The notes under the pieces were generated by a model, which did no database searches, was not told where the DNA came from, and worked only from the letters and a program-made list of their open reading frames with translations. From IMG/VR virus record IMGVR_UViG_3300048016_000310: 13,294 nt of DNA, one strand, 5' to 3'. A program made the position numbers and the translations under genes. Positions within the stretch are counted from its first letter, which is position 1, and every line of letters starts with the position of its first letter. This DNA comes from a virus (taxonomy: Duplodnaviria > Heunggongvirae > Uroviricota > Caudoviricetes). Positions 4,201-13,294 of the stretch are shown here, one piece after another.

Positions 4201-6357
4201 TATTCGATTAAAAGAGGTTGTGAGTGTAACACTCCTACTGAGAGAAATATCAACTCTTACTATGGTTCTATTAAAACTTCTAATGTAAATCAATATGGAA
4301 CAGTTTATGATATAAATTGGCTACCAACAGGAAGTGAACTTAATACTCACAATACAGCTATCTTTGGAGGAGACACTTACATTTCAAGATTCTCCCTAAA
4401 AAGAAAGCACTCATTCTTTTCACAATCTACATTTGGTTTACCTTTAGATTTTGATATAAACTTTAGTTTAGTAGGCAATGCTGCATATCCTATATACTTT
4501 TTAGATATGTTGCCAAAACCTAAGTATAGATATATTCAAGCTGTGAATGGTATAAACTTTCCAATTTCTAGTTTGACTCAAAGTGTAATATCAGGATTAT
4601 TTCCTATTTGGAATAACTTTTTGTTTAATGCAGACAATTATCTAAACAAACCAAAATATAGATTAGATTGTAGTTTAGAAAGACTAGATATAGGAAACCC
4701 AGCTAAAGAGAAGTCCAACGAACTTTCATTTACTTCTGTAGAAGGTTTAATGTATTTATACAACTATGGTATTCCATATTTCTTAGTAGAGACTGAAATT
4801 AATTTAGATTTAAGACAAGCAGGTAAAGAACTTTTTGAAGACTTCTACCCAAATCAATCAAATCTAGAATTGTGGTTACAAGAAAAAAATGTAGCACCTT
4901 CAATAGACAACGTGTACATATATGACAAAGGCTTCTCTAAACAACCAATAGAATCTTTTCATTACTTAAATGATTTGAATTTCAGAAAAGATAAAGATGA
5001 AAAACCTACTAGAACTATACATTCTCCAAGAGGTTTATCAGTAGATGATTCTGATTATGCAGATATTTTTATTCAAAATAGAGCTATAGACTATCATGAT
5101 TTTTCAAAAGTAAATGGAGCTTTAACTTCTATTGATGCAATTGAAGGAGACAGAGTTTTAGTTAGACAAGAAAACAACTCTTCTATATTTAACTCATATG
5201 TTGAAATAAACACAGATGCTGCAACAGCTATAATTTCTACTGGCTCTTTGTTCAAATCAAAACCTGTAGAATTTTCTAAAGCTACTTTAGGTTACTTTGG
5301 CTCACAACACTCAGCAATCTTACATACTCCATATGGACATGTATCAGTAGATGCTAAAAGAGGAAGTATCTTTTTACTTGGCAACAATGCTAAAGGTTTA
5401 GAAGAACTTTCAAATCAAGGAATGAAAAATTGGTTTAAAGAAAATTTACCATTCTTGATTACAAGCTACTTTCCAGAGGTAGATGTAGATAATGCATTTG
5501 CAGGAATAGGCTTAATTTTAGGATATGATTCTAGATTTAATAGTTTCTACTTGACTAAGTTAGACTACAAACCTTTAGATTCAGGAATAATTTATAACCC
5601 TGAAACTAAGCAATTCTTGTTCAATGACACAGAGATATTCGTAGAAAATAAAGAGTACTTCTGTAATAAATCTTGGACTGTAAGTTATAACTTCTACACT
5701 AAACAGTGGCAGAGTTTCCATAGCTTTACTCCTAATTATTACATAGACCATGTAGACCATTTTGATACAGGAATAAAAGGTTCTCTTTGGAAACATAATG
5801 TAACTAACAAAGACTTTCAACGCTACTATGGAAAACTATATCCTTTTATTGTGGAGACTCAATCTAAGGTGGATATGTTAAATCATATAGTAAAAAATGT
5901 ATCTTTCTTAGTAGATGTTGTAGAATATTTCAATGACTACGATTACATCGTAAATAAAGAAAAAAGCTTTTCAAAAGCAATAGTGTACAATGATTATCAA
6001 AATACTGGACTACTAGAATTGGATTATGTTGTAAATAATTTGTTTTTGAAATCAAAATACCCTATCTTAGCACCTGATAGAAGAAGAGTACTTTTAGAAA
6101 TAAAAGAAGATTTACATTCTTTCAACCAATTTAAAGACATTATACATAATACTAATGTACCAGTTTGGAAATTAGATTGTACAAATGTTTTTAGAAATTT
6201 AAATAATTCTGTTCTAGATTATAATTCAAGAAGATTGAGCAGCAACCCTTTAAGGAGTACTCAAAACAAAGTAAGACTTATTCAAGACAGAGATTATCAA
6301 TATCAATTTATATTTAAAGGTTTATTTTTAAATGATGGAGAATCCAGAAGATTTTGA
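1171..6357 (+). CDS. Tail stabilization / muzzle-hub protein, crAss-like Tstab (P22 gp10-like)
   Basis: 1728-aa ORF. It starts KGLQQD...YSFVLNG and contains FLRDEVYALSI, FAYWESTERYP...WGDLCG..IKHFKFPD, IFGGDTYISRF, YFGSQH and SWTVSYNFYTKQWQSFHSFTPNYY, which I recognise as typical of this family. It follows the ring protein gene. Confidence 0.75.
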   Translation: MQYSTNIKGLQQDINSSKKTEDTYSFVLNGTVENFSEQQPFPFISNTPSNKKCVEFKEHEIVIGTLDVPELNFSLLAVLNENTQVKSFLKLTYRKKNLGLNRSFDKTDCGCAFTVEVEDSSADCNIQELLVTSCFNWSKNAPVRLKYKITDSTFNLYFVNGLDQDRFVYFNLDDFSIEKTFLQTQNTGECDEITTLNLACDKTLWFPEVSYPNLKLEAITGGNKSVGKYNYLLAYSTNKGVALSPYIGLSQGINIFDKRKETVDKSVKVTIQNLDKNSRYKYYTLVRIETVKGLTLYKIVGTYPVIQTEVIDSDNQGEAISAEELLSLYPIYKNSKLLTVGNDTLFKGNLKEFEKFNLQPVINNVEVKWITQVLKEGDYADPEKALKYTSFLRDEVYALSIEPILSNLEKAPTFLLSSKAPYNALWQTQNTATKTFTNTDTLMDLEVSKEIYQEGQFAYWESTERYPNSPEIWGDLCGETIKHFKFPDHQLTVHHSSNAYDVQNYIFPIGVKITSDMNVIFDSAVTQGLITQEQRDRIVGWKLLRSNRLGNKSVIAKGLLYHMLKYERSNIDKNFDQDCNENSSTYYFPNYPYDDLNADPFLASSAAHYDVDAPNTAAVTKLEFTNEKRYTFHSPDTHFTEPDLGSTLKVEAEVSGKARGFFNIAEGQAEYKLLSSKHYNLALSLGKWIANTQKSPTEESTKQLFANIGGEAFGTGGATGKALGSLLGSFVGKGIFKNNVVLQFTDSLFKSSITQFEAEKLTSLIKGLMNYKKYFYQHQSVGKYNTITPVVHTREIEDSSYLDKGKHVVNQTFINNFDRESSVYLKLDTALPDWKNTSKDNSKILISDSSLATVTEEVVQEVVTCKKFGYSVVGTGTFSLWAKYCQPILITNPVGQSFPQGSYSYIKDSSLASFNTFNQRHNRRVYHDYDDNYYYTEEVLFYYNSDAIFGTVNNVPTPVESTLSCYQELIIKGFDRKISEGYDDSSMIRDIENLTIEEVDVCENVTIERTYSIKRGCECNTPTERNINSYYGSIKTSNVNQYGTVYDINWLPTGSELNTHNTAIFGGDTYISRFSLKRKHSFFSQSTFGLPLDFDINFSLVGNAAYPIYFLDMLPKPKYRYIQAVNGINFPISSLTQSVISGLFPIWNNFLFNADNYLNKPKYRLDCSLERLDIGNPAKEKSNELSFTSVEGLMYLYNYGIPYFLVETEINLDLRQAGKELFEDFYPNQSNLELWLQEKNVAPSIDNVYIYDKGFSKQPIESFHYLNDLNFRKDKDEKPTRTIHSPRGLSVDDSDYADIFIQNRAIDYHDFSKVNGALTSIDAIEGDRVLVRQENNSSIFNSYVEINTDAATAIISTGSLFKSKPVEFSKATLGYFGSQHSAILHTPYGHVSVDAKRGSIFLLGNNAKGLEELSNQGMKNWFKENLPFLITSYFPEVDVDNAFAGIGLILGYDSRFNSFYLTKLDYKPLDSGIIYNPETKQFLFNDTEIFVENKEYFCNKSWTVSYNFYTKQWQSFHSFTPNYYIDHVDHFDTGIKGSLWKHNVTNKDFQRYYGKLYPFIVETQSKVDMLNHIVKNVSFLVDVVEYFNDYDYIVNKEKSFSKAIVYNDYQNTGLLELDYVVNNLFLKSKYPILAPDRRRVLLEIKEDLHSFNQFKDIIHNTNVPVWKLDCTNVFRNLNNSVLDYNSRRLSSNPLRSTQNKVRLIQDRDYQYQFIFKGLFLNDGESRRF

Positions 6358-7441
6358 AAGTACAGGAGATGAAACTCTTGATGCGTATATACAAATGAAT
6401 GAGGAGCAGCCAGAAGAGGTTGCTCCAACCAATGCTCTAGAAATAGAAGAGCCAGACTATAGTTTCCTTGATGATTTTGAAGATGATGAGGATGAGTCTA
6501 CTATTAGACAATACTATGGGAATGATGGAGTACAAGCTTACAGAGCTGCACCACTAAAACAAATGGATAAAGATGTAGCTCAAAAGGGCTACGACTATCT
6601 TACTAAAGTCTTAGGACAAGGAAAAGTTTTGGCAGCAGCTTTAGTAGGACAAATGATGAAAGAATCAGGAGGAAATCCTAAAGCAGTACATGATAATGGT
6701 ACTGGATATGGTCTATTTGGACATAGAGACCCTACTCCAAATAGAGGTAGAAAAACTAAATTGTTTAGCCATTTAGGAAGGTCAAATAAACCTGAATTCT
6801 TTGGACAACTTGATTATGCAGTAAAAGAACTAGCAACAGACTATCCATCTACTTATCAAAAAGTAAATAATACTGATAACATAGACTATGCTACAGAAAC
6901 TCTAATGACTGAGTGGGAAAGTCCTCATCCTAAATATGCAGATGCAAAAACTAGGAAAATGTGGGCTCGTAGTGTGTATCATCAGTATGGTGGAATAGTT
7001 TCTAACATTTCTCAAAGTCCTTGGCTACAACAAAATAAGCTTACATCTAGTTTAAATAATGGAATACCTTATTCAAACTTTAATCCACCTGTCTTAAACA
7101 GAGCAGAGTTTAATCAAACAACTCATGAAGCTTTCTTAGAAGAAGGGGCTCCTATAGATAATGATTTAACTTCGGGTTTATCTACTAGTCAATATGAAGC
7201 TATAGACCAACAGTTAGCCTCTAATATAGATAGGTTTTCTAAAGGACTTGAAGTTGCAGATCAATTTGAAGGTACTATGGGTCAAACTATTTCAGCAGGA
7301 ATAGCTGGAGCAGAATCGATGGTAAATAATAGAAATAACTTCCTAAATGCCTACAAAGAAAGACAAAGATTACTGCAAGAACAAAAAGAAGATTATAATG
7401 CTATGGATGGGCAGAATAAACAAAAAGAGATATGGACATAA
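6332..7441 (+). CDS. Virion protein with phage tail lysozyme (Phage_lysozyme2-like) domain and acidic N-terminus
   Basis: AAALVGQMMKESGGNP...GYGLF...QLDYAVKEL...ATETLMTEWESP matches the lysozyme-fold pattern, with the putative catalytic Glu in KES. The first ~60 aa are very rich in D/E. Confidence 0.75.
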   Translation: MMENPEDFESTGDETLDAYIQMNEEQPEEVAPTNALEIEEPDYSFLDDFEDDEDESTIRQYYGNDGVQAYRAAPLKQMDKDVAQKGYDYLTKVLGQGKVLAAALVGQMMKESGGNPKAVHDNGTGYGLFGHRDPTPNRGRKTKLFSHLGRSNKPEFFGQLDYAVKELATDYPSTYQKVNNTDNIDYATETLMTEWESPHPKYADAKTRKMWARSVYHQYGGIVSNISQSPWLQQNKLTSSLNNGIPYSNFNPPVLNRAEFNQTTHEAFLEEGAPIDNDLTSGLSTSQYEAIDQQLASNIDRFSKGLEVADQFEGTMGQTISAGIAGAESMVNNRNNFLNAYKERQRLLQEQKEDYNAMDGQNKQKEIWT

Positions 7442-7827
7442 AATTTAAAAAAAAGGAGTCATTTGTAGAAGTCATAAGCCAGCTAAAGCATGCTGGAACA
7501 CAAATGCACATCTTTCATTTACAAACACAGAGCTATGCTGAACACATGGCTTTAGGAGGATTTTATGATGGTCTTCCAGGACTCATAGATGGTTTAGTAG
7601 AAACAGTTCAAGGGAAAGAACAGTCTTTAGTAAAAGGCTACAAAGCTTTTCCATTTGCGGATTACACGAGTTCTGCTGCTACTTTACAATATTTACAAAA
7701 TTTATTATTGAAAATAGAATCTTATAGATTATCTTTACCAAAAAGTTGGGCTAACATTGATAATCAATTACAAGTAGTGATAGACCTAACTGAATCTACA
7801 ATGTATAAATTAAAATTTTTAAAATGA
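7432..7827 (+). CDS. Ferritin/Dps-like four-helix protein (DUF5856-like)
   Basis: HIFHLQTQSYAEHMALGGFYDGLPGLIDGLVETVQGK and a C-terminal YKLKFLK are characteristic of this phage ferritin-like family. Confidence 0.7.
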   Translation: MDIKFKKKESFVEVISQLKHAGTQMHIFHLQTQSYAEHMALGGFYDGLPGLIDGLVETVQGKEQSLVKGYKAFPFADYTSSAATLQYLQNLLLKIESYRLSLPKSWANIDNQLQVVIDLTESTMYKLKFLK

Positions 7828-8000
7828 ATCAATATGAAGAATGGGAATTAGACGAAATTTCGTCTCCAATAAACATGTTTTCTTCTAAGAAAGATATAGA
7901 AGAATTTATTAAAGTGTCTACTACAGAAGAGGTTGAAGCTATGGCTAAGATTCTAGAAGAAGAAGGGCATAAATTTGCAAAACTATTAAAAATAAAATGA
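7824..8000 (+). CDS. 58-aa hypothetical acidic protein, absent from the ORF track
   Basis: MNQYEEWELDEISSPINMFSSKKDIEEFIKVSTTEEVEAMAKILEEEGHKFAKLLKIK*. It has ATGA overlaps with both neighbours (7824-7827 and 7997-8000) and exactly fills the gap. Confidence 0.8.
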   Translation: MNQYEEWELDEISSPINMFSSKKDIEEFIKVSTTEEVEAMAKILEEEGHKFAKLLKIK

Positions 8001-8305
8001 TGGCAGAAACACAGGAAGATTTAAATCCAAAACCAGTAATGTTCTCTTTAGACAGTTTAATGCCTCAAGGTTCATATAATACTATTTCTAGAAAAGAAAA
8101 AATCAACATTGTAAAAGATTCTATTCATCTTTTAACTTCTGTTAAAAATGCAGGAGTCATGGAAGGAGAAGGAATGACACATGCCTACAAAAGTTTATTC
8201 CTTAATGAGATGTATGTCTATCAACTAGAAGATCAAATTATGGATTTATCAAAATTATTAGTACAAGAAACTAAAGCATTATTTAAAAATGGGAAAACTA
8301 AATAA
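7997..8305 (+). CDS. Hypothetical protein (102 aa)
   Basis: The ORF overlaps both flanking genes in the operon; no family recognised. Confidence 0.75.
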   Translation: MMAETQEDLNPKPVMFSLDSLMPQGSYNTISRKEKINIVKDSIHLLTSVKNAGVMEGEGMTHAYKSLFLNEMYVYQLEDQIMDLSKLLVQETKALFKNGKTK

Positions 8306-10730
8306 GTACCTAAAACCAAAAGTAGTAGTAGAAAAAGGAGAGTATGTAAGAAACAATGCAGGACAAGTCATGCAGGTATCTCAGAATATGCCTACACACG
8401 ACGATACACACAAGGTTACCTCTACAGGTACAGAGAAAGTAAAAAAAGGTCAAGGAGGAGTAGAACTAGAGGGAATTGAATCTGTTGTATCTGCCACACA
8501 AGAAAATAGAAATCAGAAAGATTCTACCTATACGGTAGTAGATGATTCAATAAAGCTAAGACCTCAAGATGCTCAAGATTGGGCTATGTCTAAGTTTGGC
8601 ATCAAAATTGCAAAACCAAAAAGCTCTTTATCTTTTTCTAAAGCAATCACTTTAGTTAAAGACCAAGTAGATATAAAGGTTAAGAAGTATGAACAAGCTT
8701 TTCCTGAAGCATCAGACAAACTAGTACTTAATGCTGCAAAAGCAAACAAAGAAGTTCTAGAAACCCTACCAAGTCTTGAGGACATATATGAACAAGCATT
8801 GCAAGACCAAGAAGCTTTAAAGATTCCTGTACCACAACAGAACGCTCAAGTAGGTACTATGCAAGACTATGGTTTTAAATCTCCACAAACAGATAGGTAT
8901 AATTTTAAAAAAAAAGTACCAACAAAAGAAGAACTTTTATCTGACCAAAAGCAAGTATTAGCAAGAAACAAAGAAATTGTAGCAGCTAGATATAGAAATG
9001 TAGCATCTTCTCAGTTAGCAAGAGAAGCTCCTAATCAATTTTCTCCAGACATGATAGCTCAAAAAACTCAAGCTATTGGAGATAAATTTAGAATCTTTCC
9101 TAATGACCCTCATTCTTTTATTGATGATTACTTAAATCCAGGAGTAATGATAGGAGATTTAGCTTCTGGTGTAGGACAAATTCCTAAAAATGTGCAAGAT
9201 AAAGAATATGGTAAAGCCGCTTTAAATCTGGCAGCTCCAGTTGCTATAGGAGCTTTAGCTAGTTTTGGAGCAAAGGGAAATGGTCAATTTGTTAACAACT
9301 TAATAAATCCAGTAGCAGATGCAATTCCTTTTAGAATTACACCTAATAGTGCAGAAATCAATCAATTTAAAGATTTGTTTAAACCTAAAGAAGCTTTTGT
9401 TGGATTGAATGAAACTGAAAGACAGACTATAAGAGCAGTAAGAAACACAGGTTCTCAATTGGCAAGAGGTGTTTTAGATACCCCTGAAAAAGGATTAACT
9501 TTTTTAAACAAATTAAAAACAAGAGCTGATATTTTATCTGACTCTGAATTTCAAAATCTTACAGGATTTAATAAATCCAGTATAGATGAAAAAATAGATG
9601 ATTTAAAAAATGCTTCTAAGAAAAAAGAAGAAGAAGTTTTAGGTCTAGAAGACCAAGATGATGCTTTGTATGATGTACAATATACTCCTGAACCATCACT
9701 TGATAACTATGATGGTCCTATAAGAAGCTCAGAAGAAACCAGAGATTTCTACTTAAACACGCCCTCTGATGTTTATGAAAATATTGGAAGAGCTGCAGAT
9801 TCAAGTTTTTTAAGAAGATATAGAGGGTTAGTTGATGAGCAAAGACTTAATGATAATCAATTAGCACCTCCTCCAGAAATACTAAATTTTACTATTGACC
9901 CAATCTTCAATTCTAGAGCAGAGAGCTTTAGACAAGCATTATTTGAACATAAACAAAGAGATAAACCTTTTTTATTTAAAAAAGCACTAGATAAAGTTAG
10001 TGGAAATTTAACTCCTAGTAATAAAGAAATAGAACACTCTTTACTCCCTTCTTTATTTGCTAAAGGAGATTTTGACACAGGAAAAGAAATAAATAATGCT
10101 TTTAATATATTTAAAAATCTAGAAAAGGGAAAAACTGTAAATGCAGCTAATTCTTTATCTTCTGATAGTAAGTTATTAGAGTTACAAATGTATCAAAAAG
10201 CTGTAAACGAAGGTCTTGCAAAAGTAAACTATCATGGAGAAAATTATTTAAATGGGTTAGGTTTTGGAGAAAAGGCAAAATTAAATCCTACTTTGATTAA
10301 AAAAGAAATAGATACTTATATTGATAACTTAAATAAAACTGCAAAAACAAAAATACCTTATTCTAAAATAGAAGGAGAACATATATCATATCCTAATTTG
10401 TCTGTAACAAGAAAACAAGTAGGAGGAGAATTAGAGAAAAGAATTGAGAAAGGTAAAAAATGGTTTAAGAAAAAAGACTCAGAAGGAAAGTATCCTAAAA
10501 CTAAAGAAGTTTTTACTGCACAGGCTGGTACAAAAACAAAATTAAAACCATACCCCTACATGAAAGGTTCAAGACCTGCATTAGGAACTACATCAGGAAA
10601 GTCAATTGAATCTTTAGATGGAAGGTCTATTTCTATGGACCAAATCTATGATGCAGATTCAGTAGAAGTTCAAGGAGACAAAGCTAAAACTTTCTACAAG
10701 TCTAAGCTTCAAAAATATTTAAAAAAATAA
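8289..10730 (+). CDS. Large virion cargo/ejection-type protein (813 aa), function uncertain
   Basis: Long ORF closing the structural operon. It has N-terminal VEKGE...PTHDD and recurring Q-x-G-[GT] motifs, reminiscent of Bacteroidota-phage virion proteins. The function is inferred from context. Confidence 0.5.
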   Translation: MGKLNKYLKPKVVVEKGEYVRNNAGQVMQVSQNMPTHDDTHKVTSTGTEKVKKGQGGVELEGIESVVSATQENRNQKDSTYTVVDDSIKLRPQDAQDWAMSKFGIKIAKPKSSLSFSKAITLVKDQVDIKVKKYEQAFPEASDKLVLNAAKANKEVLETLPSLEDIYEQALQDQEALKIPVPQQNAQVGTMQDYGFKSPQTDRYNFKKKVPTKEELLSDQKQVLARNKEIVAARYRNVASSQLAREAPNQFSPDMIAQKTQAIGDKFRIFPNDPHSFIDDYLNPGVMIGDLASGVGQIPKNVQDKEYGKAALNLAAPVAIGALASFGAKGNGQFVNNLINPVADAIPFRITPNSAEINQFKDLFKPKEAFVGLNETERQTIRAVRNTGSQLARGVLDTPEKGLTFLNKLKTRADILSDSEFQNLTGFNKSSIDEKIDDLKNASKKKEEEVLGLEDQDDALYDVQYTPEPSLDNYDGPIRSSEETRDFYLNTPSDVYENIGRAADSSFLRRYRGLVDEQRLNDNQLAPPPEILNFTIDPIFNSRAESFRQALFEHKQRDKPFLFKKALDKVSGNLTPSNKEIEHSLLPSLFAKGDFDTGKEINNAFNIFKNLEKGKTVNAANSLSSDSKLLELQMYQKAVNEGLAKVNYHGENYLNGLGFGEKAKLNPTLIKKEIDTYIDNLNKTAKTKIPYSKIEGEHISYPNLSVTRKQVGGELEKRIEKGKKWFKKKDSEGKYPKTKEVFTAQAGTKTKLKPYPYMKGSRPALGTTSGKSIESLDGRSISMDQIYDADSVEVQGDKAKTFYKSKLQKYLKK

Positions 10731-11403: not shown

Positions 11404-11437
11404 AAAATAAAAAATCCTCAACCATAAGGAAGAGGAT
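11404..11437 (-). terminator. Intrinsic terminator (attenuator 3:4 hairpin) directly upstream of tRNA-Cys
   Basis: ATCCTCTTCC-TTAT-GGTTGAGGAT (8 bp, 2 U-U mismatches) followed by TTTTTATTTT; the tract ends 2 nt before the tRNA-Cys 5' end. Confidence 0.8.
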
Positions 11438-11462: not shown

Positions 11463-11528
11463 TTAGAACATACCTCTCCCAGCCTTGTAACAAGGACACC
11501 ATTGGGGAGTATGTTGTAAATTTTTCAT
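11463..11528 (-). CDS. 21-aa attenuator leader peptide MKNLQHTPQWCPCYKAGRGMF
   Basis: ATG AAA AAT TTA CAA CAT ACT CCC CAA TGG TGT CCT TGT TAC AAG GCT GGG AGA GGT ATG TTC TAA. The ATG is 4 nt after the -7 box, so the mRNA is probably leaderless. Confidence 0.75.
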   Translation of the reverse strand: MKNLQHTPQWCPCYKAGRGMF

Positions 11529-11532
11529 GGTA

Positions 11533-11563
11533 CAAAAGTAATACATTAATTTGTTATTTCAAA
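11533..11563 (-). promoter_or_regulatory. Bacteroidota sigma-A promoter, consensus match
   Basis: TTTG (11563-60), a 19-nt spacer, then TACTTTTG (11540-33). Confidence 0.8.
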
Positions 11564-11661
11564 GGGATATTTCCCAATTCTACGAAAAGTGCAATAAAAG
11601 GACTTGCACAAAGACCTATGATAAGTAAAATATTATACCATTTTTTCAGATTAACTCTCAT
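11554..11661 (-). CDS. 35-aa single-pass membrane peptide
   Basis: MRVNLKKWYNILLIIGLCASPFIALFVELGNIPLK*. It has a basic N-terminus and a hydrophobic stretch, an A-rich 5' region (CAACTAAAAAC-ATG) and an upstream -7 box. Confidence 0.6.
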   Translation of the reverse strand: MRVNLKKWYNILLIIGLCASPFIALFVELGNIPLK

Positions 11662-11693: not shown

Positions 11694-11763
11694 GGAATTA
11701 AATAAATACCAATCACTAGAAAATACAAAAGTTCTTTAAAAAATACAATAGATTCTTTAAAAG

Positions 11764-11840
11764 TGGAAGCTATGGGCATCGAACCCATCTGATAATCCTC
11801 TGTGCAAGAGAGGTAAACACTCCAAGCATTTCCAGCCCCC
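11764..11840 (-). tRNA. trnA: tRNA-Ala(UGC), atypical core
   Basis: GGGGGCT/AGCTTCC acceptor with G3:U70; CCTCT-CT TGC AC-AGAGG anticodon arm; G8, G14 and an 8-nt variable region. Confidence 0.88.
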
Positions 11841-11845
11841 GAATG

Positions 11846-11916
11846 TGGAATAGGGAGGAATCGAACCTCCGCTGGCAACTCTTCAGGCTGCTGCTCTACC
11901 CCTGAGCTACTATTCC
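11846..11916 (-). tRNA. trnF: tRNA-Phe(GAA)
   Basis: GGAATAG/CTATTCC acceptor; GCAGC-CT GAA GA-GTTGC anticodon arm. Confidence 0.95.
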
Positions 11917-11924
11917 ATTTGTTG

Positions 11925-11998
11925 AGGGAGGTGTTGGATTCGAACCAACAACCTGAGAGTTAACAGCTCCCTGCTCTGGCCATTATAGCTAACCTCCC
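11925..11998 (-). tRNA. trnN: tRNA-Asn(GUU)
   Basis: GGGAGGT/ACCTCCC acceptor; GGGAG-CT GTT AA-CTCTC anticodon arm; U73. Confidence 0.93.
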
Positions 11999-12003
11999 AA
12001 TTG

Positions 12004-12074
12004 TAGGAATAACAAGATTTGAACTTGTAAGACATCCTTATCAGGATGCATGATAACCATTTCATTATACTCCT
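12004..12074 (-). tRNA. trnI: tRNA-Ile(GAU) with a 6-nt anticodon loop (one nucleotide short)
   Basis: AGGAGTA/TATTCCT acceptor and intact D and T arms. The anticodon arm CATCC-TGATAA-GGATG is 16 nt instead of 17. Confidence 0.75.
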
Positions 12075-12223
12075 TTTTCTAATTTTAATCTTTTTTCATA
12101 TTTTCCTATAAGCTTAGTAATCTGACCATATGAAACATATGAACCTTGTTTAATCTGCCCTAACTCTCCAGTATAAGCTGTAGAATACTGGAGAGCTCTT
12201 AAGTCTGCTAAAAATTCTTCCAT
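12065..12223 (-). CDS. 52-aa hypothetical protein overlapping the tRNA-Ile(GAU) 5' end
   Basis: MEEFLADLRALQYSTAYTGELGQIKQGSYVSYGQITKLIGKYEKRLKLEKGV*. It fills the gap between tRNAs and has an A-rich 5' context (AAAATAA-ATG). Confidence 0.6.
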   Translation of the reverse strand: MEEFLADLRALQYSTAYTGELGQIKQGSYVSYGQITKLIGKYEKRLKLEKGV

Positions 12224-12239
12224 TTATTTTAATGTTTTG

Positions 12240-12316
12240 TGCAGTAGGTGGGTGTCGAACCCACTATATTCCTTCTGTTTGGAAGACAGACATGCAACCA
12301 CTTACACCTCTACTGC
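12240..12316 (-). tRNA. trnG: tRNA-Gly(UCC), atypical core
   Basis: GCAGTAG/CTACTGC acceptor; TCTGT-CT TCC AA-ACAGA anticodon arm; A8, A73 and a 9-nt variable region. Confidence 0.87.
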
Positions 12317-12367
12317 AAATTGAGTAGTCCCATTTCTGGATTATGCCTTCTGCTACTCACAGGCTTG

Positions 12368-12438
12368 AGCTCCTTAACAGATTCGAACTGTTATACCTGG
12401 GTTACAACGCCAGTATTCTACCATTGAACTAAAGAAGC
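12368..12438 (-). tRNA. trnT: tRNA-Thr(UGU)
   Basis: GCTTCTT/AAGGAGC acceptor with C2:G71; CTGGC-GT TGT AA-CCCAG anticodon arm with a C31-C39 mismatch and G32. Confidence 0.85.
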
Positions 12439-12444
12439 TTAAAG

Positions 12445-12532
12445 CAGTTGTGACGGGATTTGAACCCGCATGTCCTATACAGAACTCCAGAGTGACAGTC
12501 TGGGAGGGATAACCTGATTCCCCAACACAACT
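12445..12532 (-). tRNA. trnD: tRNA-Asp(GUC) with a 17-nt variable arm
   Basis: AGTTGTG/CACAACT acceptor; G73; CCAGA-CT GTC AC-TCTGG anticodon arm; V arm A-GTTCT-GTAT-AGGAC-AT. Confidence 0.88.
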
Positions 12533-12546
12533 ATATTTTATTTTTG

Positions 12547-12620
12547 TTCTCCCACAGGGACTTGAACCCTGAACCCCAGCATTAAAAGTGCCGTACTCTA
12601 GCCAATTGAGCTATAGGAGA
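12547..12620 (-). tRNA. trnK: tRNA-Lys(UUU)
   Basis: TCTCCTA/TGGGAGA acceptor; CGGCA-CT TTT AA-TGCTG anticodon arm. Confidence 0.95.
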
Positions 12621-12648
12621 TTATTACTCTCCTATTGGAAGGAGAGTG

Positions 12649-12681
12649 TTACTGTTTATATACTGTTTTAAATTTGTTCAT
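12649..12681 (-). CDS. 10-aa mini-ORF MNKFKTVYKQ, possibly regulatory
   Basis: The ATG overlaps the upstream stop (TAATG). It contains three AAA codons, and its stop is 1 nt before a hairpin abutting tRNA-Lys. Confidence 0.35.
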   Translation of the reverse strand: MNKFKTVYKQ

Positions 12682-12899
12682 TATAATTGTTTTGTTAATA
12701 ATCCAGCTACTCTATGTATTGCTTTTTCTCCTAATCCTTGGAGTTCTACACCTGTAACTAAATACTGTTTGTTTTCTATAGTAATTTCTTTACCAATTAA
12801 GTTCAAGTCTTTTCTTAATGTAGGTAAGTTATTTTTCTCTAAATCTATAACAAAGACTTTTCCTCTTCCTATAATATTAAAGTATGTTTCTACTATCAT
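12681..12899 (-). CDS. 72-aa stand-alone EF-Tu domain II-like beta-barrel protein
   Basis: VETYFNIIGRGKV...IGKEITI...VTGVE...AGLL aligns by eye to EF-Tu IEDVFSISGRGTV...VGEEVEI...CTGVE...VGVLL. Confidence 0.6.
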   Translation of the reverse strand: MIVETYFNIIGRGKVFVIDLEKNNLPTLRKDLNLIGKEITIENKQYLVTGVELQGLGEKAIHRVAGLLTKQL

Positions 12900-12915
12900 A
12901 ATTTTTAATGTTTAG

Positions 12916-12987
12916 TAGGTTGTTGGTGACTCGAACACCAATTGCAAAGATATAAGCTTTGTATCCTTACCTTTAGATGAACAACCT
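12916..12987 (-). tRNA. trnI: tRNA-Ile(UAU)
   Basis: AGGTTGT/ACAACCT acceptor; A73; CAAAG-CT TAT AT-CTTTG anticodon arm. Confidence 0.87.
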
Positions 12988-12995
12988 ATGTTTAG

Positions 12996-13066
12996 TAGAC
13001 CTTATAGGAATCGAACCTATGTATCTGGTATGTAACACCAGTGCTAATCCCCTCAGCTAAAAGTCT
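12996..13066 (-). tRNA. trnV: tRNA-Val(UAC)
   Basis: AGACTTT/AAGGTCT acceptor; CTGGT-GT TAC AT-ACCAG anticodon arm (G32, U38). Confidence 0.9.
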
Positions 13067-13071
13067 ATATG

Positions 13072-13170
13072 CTGTGAAAGAAAGATTCGAACTTTCATTT
13101 CTAGGTATTCAATATATTTCCTAGCTTCCACGAGACAGGTGGTTGGGTGTGCCAATTTCCCTACTTCACA
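13072..13170 (-). tRNA. trnD: tRNA-Asp(GUC)-like, 99 nt, with U37 and a 30-nt variable arm
   Basis: TGTGAAG/TTTCACA acceptor; G73; CCAC-CT GTC TC-GTGG anticodon arm; V arm closed by CTAGG/CCTAG; canonical T arm. Confidence 0.7.
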
Positions 13171-13174
13171 ATTT

Positions 13175-13249
13175 TGGAGGGTTTACTAGGAATCCAACCT
13201 AGATTCAAGAGTTAGAAGCTCCTTGTACTGTGCATTGTACTATAAACCC
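13175..13249 (-). tRNA. trnR: tRNA-Arg(UCU) with encoded CCA and C19:G56
   Basis: GGGTTTA/TAAACCC acceptor; AGGAG-CT TCT AA-CTCTT anticodon arm; D loop AATGCACA; T loop TTGGATT. Confidence 0.88.
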
Positions 13250-13254
13250 TTATA

Positions 13255-13284
13255 ACAAAAAATCCCCCAATTGCTTGGAGGATT
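13255..13284 (-). terminator. Intrinsic terminator directly upstream of tRNA-Arg (probable second attenuator)
   Basis: AATCCTCCAA-GCAA-TTGGGGGATT (10 bp including one G-U, GNRA loop) followed by TTTTGTT, ending a few nt before tRNA-Arg. Confidence 0.8.
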
Positions 13285-13294
13285 CTCTTTATAT

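Follow-up and report, generated by a model that had tools for sequence, protein, structure and literature searches.

The tRNA genes of phages tend to be regarded as cargo that is expressed passively. In the crAss-like phage studied here, a terminator precedes each of the three tRNA blocks, and two of the blocks have leader mini-genes that are written in the amino acids of the tRNAs they appear to gate. The third and largest block has a terminator as well, hairpin B, together with a strongly conserved leader of a different design. Is hairpin B a conditional gate, and what would open it? If hairpin B is conditional, a single phage would manage its tRNA supply with two sensing logics; a constitutive hairpin would show how a phage sets the ratio of an mRNA to a tRNA array.

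Sequences compared

The window, i.e. the whole stretch of 13,294 nucleotides that was analysed, carries crAss-like structural genes on its + strand (copies of them on near-identical contigs carry the Pfam families CrAss_Ring_1 and CrAss_Ring_2) and 16 tRNA genes called by ARAGORN on its - strand, from 13249 down to 11012. It ends 10 nt upstream of the stem of hairpin B, so that other DNA was needed for testing the hypothesis. Near-identical freshwater metagenome contigs (L001-L007) were retrieved by exact-protein look-up. Freshwater samples with this phage include JGI 3300046319 and 3300046320. The fullest of them, L004, is part of a 52-kb JGI contig, and the tRNA strand is the + strand there. 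The 420 nt upstream of hairpin B show no difference among the near-identical contigs that reach that far. The diverged relatives L009, L010 and L011/L012 were reached via homologues of the small gene orf70, with L008 as the fourth, and the more distant phages L013 and L014 through a neighbouring 826-residue protein (64% and 26% identity, respectively). The leader of hairpin B was compared in five distinct versions, those of L004, L008, L009, L010 and L011. No match was obtained in exact-pattern scans of IMG/VR for hairpin B, in protein-anchored scans of IMG/VR and the JGI metagenomes, in a search of metagenome contigs for the leader pattern, or in megablast and blastn searches of the INPHARED phages.

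The block behind hairpin B belongs to unit B; the Glu-Tyr-Leu-Leu-Ser-Ser and Cys-Pro-His-Trp-Gln blocks, with their leaders and terminators, are units A and C. Features are listed in Table 1.

Table 1. Positions of promoter, leader, terminator and tRNA features. Numbers refer to the window unless L004 is named.
Feature	Position	Strand	Remark
Middle-type tripartite promoter, A-tract + TTGACA-N18-TATCTTTG	L004 6997-7028	+ in L004	
orf70, 70 codons	L004 7072-7284	+ in L004	
Variable spacer after the orf70 stop, 14 nt	before the conserved stretch	+ in L004	
Conserved non-coding leader B, about 90 nt	L004 from 7296 to the hairpin at 7383-7406	+ in L004	
f1, candidate sensor ORF	ATG L004 7303	+ in L004	18 nt after the orf70 stop, conserved A/T-rich context
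f2, candidate sensor ORF	ATG L004 7340	+ in L004	ATG inside TGGAGGA
A-rich last 10 nt of the conserved leader	13285..13294	-	identical in L004, L008, L009 and L011; 2 nt shorter in L010
Hairpin B 5' arm (region 3), AATCCTCCAA	13284-13275	-	TCCTCCA core complementary to TGGAGGA (L004 7341-7347), which begins 44 nt upstream
Hairpin B GCAA tetraloop (GNRA-type)	13274-13271	-	
Hairpin B 3' arm (region 4), TTGGGGGATT	13270-13261	-	
T run and 7-nt tail GTTATAA to the tRNA	13250..13262	-	T run 13262-13257, first two T within the stem
tRNA-Arg(UCU), first gene behind hairpin B	13249-13175	-	begins 11 nt after the stem, 7 nt after the T run
99-nt Asp(GUC)-like tRNA-like element	13072-13170	-	called by neither ARAGORN nor Rfam
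Rest of block B: Val, Ile(UAU), orf72, Lys, Asp, Thr, Gly, orf52, Ile(GAU), Asn, Phe, Ala	11763..13066	-	
Unit A leader ORF (20 codons, core SYSLYLESE) and terminator	L004 6299-6416	+ in L004	between tRNA-Met and tRNA-Glu
Unit C leader ORF, 21 codons, core QHTPQWCPC	11463..11528	-	
Terminator hairpin C	11414..11437	-	13 nt before tRNA-Cys

Hairpin B and the tRNA block behind it

The preliminary description had placed a strong terminator directly in front of tRNA-Arg, and this is borne out: a 10-bp stem (nine Watson-Crick pairs and one G-U), a GCAA loop and a T run occupy 13284-13257 of the - strand. With its G+C-rich stem-loop, six T and then GTT, the element has the sequence of an intrinsic (Rho-independent) terminator. 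The stem-loop alone is predicted at -12.7 kcal/mol, and AGAG at 13288-13285 could lengthen the stem by pairing with the U tract. Placed in a 136-nt context taken from L004, the fold has a z value of -4.7, and 0 of 200 shuffled sequences fold as well. Compact hairpin-plus-T-run terminators are rare on the tRNA strand: only four occur in 22 kb of near-identical contig. Three of them precede a tRNA block by 11-13 nt, and the fourth marks the close of the tRNA region. The placement of hairpin B before a tRNA block is not chance. The hexamer ATCCTC is, as described earlier, common to the 5' arms of hairpin B and of the hairpin of the Cys block (11437-11432). Read on the + strand, 13255-13294 again gives hairpin B followed by a T-rich run, CTCTTTATATTTTTG, and could act as a two-way terminator.

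Of the 12 tRNA genes formerly assigned to this block, 11 are called by ARAGORN; the second, the Asp-like element at 13072-13170, is called neither by this program nor by Rfam, and tRNA-Ala is also missing from the Rfam calls. Two small ORFs of 72 and 52 codons interrupt the block. There are two Asp(GUC) elements with long variable arms on the - strand, one at 13072-13170 and one at 12445-12532.

Promoter and upstream gene

TAnnTTTG-type motifs are middle promoters of the host RNA polymerase in the crAss-like phage phi14:2, and the motif occurs at least once upstream of a tRNA gene in 12 of 14 crAss-like genomes (bioRxiv 10.1101/2020.03.07.982082). A promoter of this kind had been predicted just beyond the window. 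A host-type promoter is indeed present, but it lies about 350 nt upstream and first drives a real gene of 70 codons, orf70. Only two tripartite promoters were found in 18.6 kb, this one (L004 6997-7028, before orf70 and unit B) and one at L004 6158-6188 before tRNA-Met and unit A. Units A and B share the promoter type, which is also found at unit C of L010.

Hairpin B stands between the promoter and block B. On the - strand, from hairpin B to 11693, which is past the end of the block, there is no TAnnTTTG motif except one inside tRNA-Ile, and none lies within the T tract or tail of the hairpin. Since a TAnnTTTG promoter is lacking behind hairpin B, transcription of the whole block seems, by this motif criterion, to depend on read-through of the hairpin.

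Judged from its sequence, orf70 is a real gene. Its homologues are 66-80% identical, with an invariant N-terminal half in which the nucleotide changes are mostly synonymous. The 5' UTR (L004 7029-7071, around CAATTGACCAAGTAGGCATTG) is identical at 36-42 of 43 positions across the relatives, matching the conservation of the coding N-terminus. The protein is a rare one: only four clusters of homologues were found among 5.8 billion proteins (only two for the 72-residue protein of block B), comparison with Pfam gave no family match even at E = 1, and the AlphaFold2 model is unreliable (mean pLDDT 51.8). Because the promoter first drives orf70, hairpin B also ends the orf70 mRNA, as the first terminator after the gene. 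About 100 nt separate the orf70 stop from the hairpin; by contrast, at the close of the tRNA region the terminator overlaps the last gene's stop codon.

The idea that orf70 itself serves as a long test gene was dropped, with 45 of its 70 residues in the amino acid set of the block against a background of 59%, i.e. no enrichment. Extension of orf70 by stop-codon reassignment was dropped as well: a TAG stands two codons after the TGA, and the array has no suppressor tRNA.

A conserved leader with a predicted alternative fold

Conservation of leader B starts abruptly at ATAAATAATGGG. Compared with L004, the leader core is identical at 56-59 of 59 positions in L008, L009, L010 and L011 (95-100%), and hairpin B with its T run at 32 of 32. 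The flanks have diverged. On one side, the spacer after the orf70 stop keeps only 5-11 of 14 positions in these relatives and the C-terminal part of orf70 42-43 of 66 in three of the four; on the other, tRNA-Arg is only 61-72% identical in L008 and L011. Leader and hairpin B together, 97-100% identical in the five phages, form a conservation island between diverged flanks, which may reflect constraint or, alternatively, gene conversion.

Within this island lies the upstream segment resembling GGAGG that had been predicted to pair with the 5' arm of the hairpin. TGGAGGA (L004 7341-7347) is a perfect complement of TCCTCCA in the 5' arm and is invariant in the five versions; a perfect 7-nt complement to the arm arises in 1.1-2.2% of shuffled upstream sequences. 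When the transcript is cut after the terminator loop, a helix between region 2 (TGGAGGA) and region 3 (the 5' arm) is predicted in all five relatives at -20 to -25 kcal/mol. In each of them this cut transcript folds into a small hairpin (L004 7321-7339) followed by the helix of TGGAGGA with the 5' arm, which encloses an inner hairpin. Three CUC:GAG pairs lengthen the helix (in L010 CUU, with one G-U). The inner hairpin of L011 has another sequence and still forms a hairpin inside the 2:3 helix. In the full-length transcript, the predicted minimum free energy structure (-33 to -34.5 kcal/mol) consists of the terminator plus a 1:2 pairing, in which the stretch around AUGGGAUUUUU pairs with GGAAACUCAU. 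In these models the layout is that of a classical attenuator, with 1:2 and 3:4 in the terminator state and 2:3 in the competing state.

The folds of leader B are predictions only. The energy gained by 2:3 pairing, -9.2 kcal/mol, is marginal: 37 of 500 dinucleotide-shuffled sequences gain as much. There are no compensatory pairs in 1:2, 2:3 or 3:4 among the five sequences, because almost nothing varies; the positions are invariant or changed one-sidedly. No Rfam family reaches its gathering threshold on leader B in a search of L004 6100-10400. The one overlapping match is to Phe_leader in the terminator region (L004 7343-7413) and stays below threshold (28.9 bits against 55, E 0.07). A T-box riboswitch was rejected, since the T-box covariance model matched nothing in the same 6100-10400 interval at E up to 1.

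Candidate sensor reading frames

A short ORF enriched in codons for the tRNAs of the block had also been predicted, and none was found. The two candidates in leader B, f1 and f2, are not enriched: the fraction of in-set amino acids is 0.43-0.64 compared with 0.59 in the large proteins of the phage (P 0.4-0.9; a set of ten amino acids gives this test little power), and the subset Arg/Asp/Val/Ile is not enriched either. Nor are the frames conserved. Indels shift both: one nucleotide is deleted in L011, two are inserted in L008 and two are deleted in L010. As a result, the stop of f1 lies 20 nt ahead of the extended stem in L011 and adjoins the stem in L008; in L004, L009 and L010 the frame runs through the terminator and stops only inside or beyond tRNA-Arg. 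The stop of f2 precedes hairpin B in four of the five relatives. Substitutions are mostly non-synonymous in both frames (four of five in f1). With codons unenriched and frames shifted, the codon-sensing part of the prediction fails.

The first 10 codons of f1 are almost invariant. In a footprint model, region 2 is free with a ribosome on codons 1-8 of f1 and masked with one on codons 9-20. The codons of the permissive window (Gly, Phe, Leu, Glu, Gln, Arg-CGG and Ile) correspond to a mixture of tRNAs from all three blocks, and the phage has no tRNA that reads CGG. A reverse-strand ORF across leader B was dropped, being frameshifted in L011.

Codon-matched leaders at the two other tRNA blocks

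The preliminary description had proposed to repeat the test at any Leu/Ser/Tyr/Met/Glu tRNA block elsewhere in the genome. Such a block exists in unit A, outside the window, about 970 nt past its end and downstream of a promoter and tRNA-Met. All nine residues of the leader core SYSLYLESE belong to the Glu/Tyr/Leu/Ser set of the tRNAs behind it, compared with a background of 28%, and the terminator, hairpin A, stands 11 nt before tRNA-Glu. L008, L009 and L010 retain the core through synonymous changes (in three Ser codons, and with the two Leu codons swapped), and hairpin A varies by compensating substitutions. A shorter core, YSLYLE, is kept in L013. Even in the distant L014, whose 826-residue protein is 26% identical, a leader with the core LSSYSYLLEE precedes an unrelated hairpin and tRNA-Glu. 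In the footprint model the competing helix of unit A can form only while the ribosome stands on codons 4-13, and these are precisely the matched codons. This out-of-sample confirmation of a codon-matched leader at the Glu/Tyr/Leu/Ser block is new here. A match of Rfam PyrR to hairpin A is far below threshold (32.8 against 54 bits).

The leader of unit C in L010 and L013 uses the same five amino acids in a different order. The ribosome-masking model gives permissive windows of codons 1-12 in L004 and 3-14 in L010, coinciding with the matched codons. The leader ORFs of units A and C have 20-24 codons and in most phages an MKN start, their cores are matched at nine of nine and eight of nine residues and change synonymously, and the enrichment has P values from 0.02 down to 2e-6. 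Judged from these sequences and models, hairpins A and C are clearly conditional, and the general idea of codon-matched gates on phage tRNA blocks is well supported. We found no published account of codon-matched leader control of tRNA genes in the literature.

Unit B resembles units A and C in several respects. All three have, on the same strand, a compact hairpin with T run 11-13 nt before the first tRNA, and in each a purine-rich region 2 is the complement of a 5' arm rich in pyrimidines. Hairpins A and B are similar in sequence, their local alignment being reached by 14 of 1000 shuffles, whereas the similarity of leaders A and B upstream of the hairpin is at chance level (415 of 1000 shuffles). 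Unit B is also without the codon-matched leader ORF that units A and C have.

Interpretation of hairpin B

We tentatively read hairpin B as the conditional terminator of a third promoter-leader-terminator-tRNA unit that is wired differently from A and C, a reading to which we give slightly less than even weight. In this scheme the host RNA polymerase would start at the promoter at L004 6997-7028, transcribe the 5' UTR, orf70 and the leader of about 90 nt, and then meet hairpin B; the 12 tRNAs and the two small ORFs would be made only by polymerases that read through it. Read-through would be conditional, with region 2 (TGGAGGA plus CUC) pairing with region 3 around the small inner hairpin. This pairing would precede the synthesis of region 4 and compete with the terminator, while in the full-length RNA region 1, which contains AUGGGAUUUUU, would pair with region 2 and let the terminator form. 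Candidate inputs are the general translation of short upstream ORFs, coupling to the translation of orf70, or a factor acting in trans such as the orf70 product. From the sequences compared, a leader peptide with codons matched to its block, such as units A and C have, is not the input.

This reading is favoured because hairpin B has the same place and geometry as gates A and C, has no recognised promoter behind it and follows a conserved leader with a predicted complement. Hairpins A and C are tied to codon-matched leaders whose permissive windows fall on the matched codons, so this hairpin position is evidently used for gating in this phage. The reading is weakened because hairpin B also ends a real gene and shows neither a consistent sensor ORF nor covariation. 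Of the earlier proposal, a conditional terminator with a codon-sensing leader, the complement and the lack of a block promoter behind the hairpin thus stand, and the codon-matched sensor ORF does not. A more far-reaching version is possible, though we think it rather unlikely: hairpin B may be the output of a new kind of tRNA gate, an RNA switch without a codon-matched test gene that is flipped by something general. Candidate triggers would be the orf70 product or the binding of a ribosome or 30S subunit to the Shine-Dalgarno-like GGAGGA of region 2, a motif that to our knowledge is otherwise avoided in Bacteroidota. The largest tRNA block would then be under a logic different from that of the two codon-sensing blocks.

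The plainest alternative is a constitutive, partly leaky terminator that ends and stabilises the orf70 mRNA and holds transcription into the tRNA block at a fixed, lower level. RNase P cutting at tRNA-Arg would separate the two RNAs, and the leader would be an element of 3' UTR stability or processing instead of a switch. A hairpin following a real gene is most simply the terminator of that gene, and hairpin B is the first one past orf70; the alternative fold is without covariation, its energy test is marginal, and no sensor ORF is conserved in frame. We consider a leaky terminator a serious rival, though a less likely one, since it leaves unexplained why 60 nt upstream of the hairpin are conserved to 95-100% while both flanks diverge, and why this stretch contains an invariant 7-nt complement of the 5' arm. 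A strong stop before 12 tRNA genes, with no promoter behind it, would also waste most of these genes, and the sister hairpins A and C are clearly conditional. A reading that stays closer to the original prediction takes f1, which has about 26-28 codons before the hairpin, as a multivalent leader peptide whose Gly, Phe, Arg, Ile, Lys, Asp and Asn codons would report on the tRNAs of the block. Its start context, its almost invariant first 10 codons and its modelled ribosome positions (region 2 free on codons 1-8, masked on 9-20) agree with such a role, and the enrichment test is weak with ten amino acids in the set (background 59%). It is nonetheless improbable: f1 taken by itself has in-set fractions of 0.47-0.64 against 0.59 (P 0.4-0.9) and of 0.16-0.25 against 0.21 for Arg/Asp/Val/Ile, its permissive codons draw on tRNAs of three blocks and include CGG, indels in L011, L008 and L010 alter frame and stop, the ORF enters the tRNA in L004, L009 and L010, and four of its five substitutions are non-synonymous.

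The conservation island could further be a by-product of recombination, i.e. of co-conversion or modular exchange at neighbouring homing-endonuclease insertions, with the hairpin as an ordinary terminator. Genes of HNH type do lie directly behind tRNA-Arg in L001-L006 and inside it in L010, and the tRNA-Arg allele behind the same hairpin is completely different in L008 and L011. Such an origin would nevertheless be surprising: the island has divergent sequence at either end, the tRNA with the insertion site among it; a conversion tract would be expected to cover the cleavage site; and within the island of L011 the inner-hairpin segment has diverged and the pairing parts have not. A conserved 3' UTR with a strong terminal terminator is the usual signature of small RNAs derived from 3' UTRs. 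Leader and hairpin B fit this signature and might be such an RNA, about 110 nt long, that is either cut out of the orf70 transcript or has a promoter of its own, with the hairpin as its terminator; the abrupt start of conservation at ATAAATAATGGG would agree with this. We regard it as the most improbable of these explanations, with no recognisable Bacteroidota-type promoter in front, no match to an Rfam family, and the transcription of the tRNA block left unexplained.

Comparison with known attenuators

If hairpin B is a conditional terminator, close formal models are the enterobacterial leader-peptide attenuators (trpL, hisL, pheL, leuL, thrL and the ilv leaders), in which the terminator likewise lies upstream of the regulated genes and 1:2 plus 3:4 compete with 2:3, as predicted for leader B. 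Unlike these, unit B is without a frame-conserved short ORF with regulatory codons, has a full 70-codon gene between promoter and leader, and has tRNA genes as its cargo where the enterobacterial systems have biosynthetic enzymes. In E. coli pyrE (rph-pyrE) and pyrBI the terminator is intercistronic after a translated upstream ORF, as in unit B, and the pyrBI leader ORF runs through the terminator like f1 in L004, L009 and L010. These systems, however, sense UTP by polymerase pausing and ribosome coupling, and nothing in unit B points to nucleotide sensing; the upstream stop codon of pyrE is close to the hairpin, that of unit B about 100 nt away.

Protein-dependent attenuators of the PyrR, TRAP and LicT/SacY types share with unit B a conserved structured leader, alternative pairing (predicted for unit B) and the lack of a sensor ORF. 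A small gene just upstream on the unit B transcript adds to the likeness, but orf70 has no Pfam match. The T-box (RF00230) is, like the proposed gate of unit B, a terminator/antiterminator leader tied to tRNA biology, and base-pairing of UGGA in region 2 with UCCA at the 3' end of tRNA-Arg is conceivable in principle. Leader B has half the usual T-box length and no Stem I or specifier-loop architecture, and T-boxes control genes for aminoacyl-tRNA synthetases, amino-acid biosynthesis and transporters, whereas the cargo of unit B is tRNA genes.

Insertions and rearrangements in the tRNA region

Behind tRNA-Arg, L001-L006 carry a 185-codon ORF with weak HNH_2 and HTH matches between this gene and the Asp-like element (13170-13175 in the window, compared with L004 7493-8233); L004 retains a diverged copy of the first Asp(GUC) element after the inserted ORF (about 8117-8233). 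The window and L008 are without this insert, and L007 has two short ORFs in its place. At 6375-7176 of L010, immediately after hairpin B, tRNA-Arg is interrupted after 14 nt by an inserted ORF of 216 codons that has a CPNCH motif and a TAnnTTTG promoter of its own; a fresh tRNA-Arg comes after it. Three unrelated tRNA-Arg(UCU) sequences stand behind the invariant hairpin B (window 13175-13249, L008 1718-1790, L011 1073-1145), which points to a cassette-like replacement of this gene.

Rearrangements are also seen at the other blocks. In L010, leader A and its terminator are intact and are followed (about 5095-5170) by a chimera, uncalled by ARAGORN, in which the 5' part of a tRNA-Glu is joined to the 3' end of a tRNA-Ser; recombination between T arms seems to have removed the Glu-to-Ser block, with the gate kept. 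L013 (1999-2360, - strand) is without orf70, leader B and most of block B, and all that remains behind its leader A (core YSLYLE) is tRNA-Glu, a Tyr-like remnant and tRNA-Ala. Between tRNA-Ala and the leader of the Cys block, a hydrophobic ORF of 35 codons with its own TACATTTG promoter box (11553-11660, - strand) is conserved in L009 and L013.
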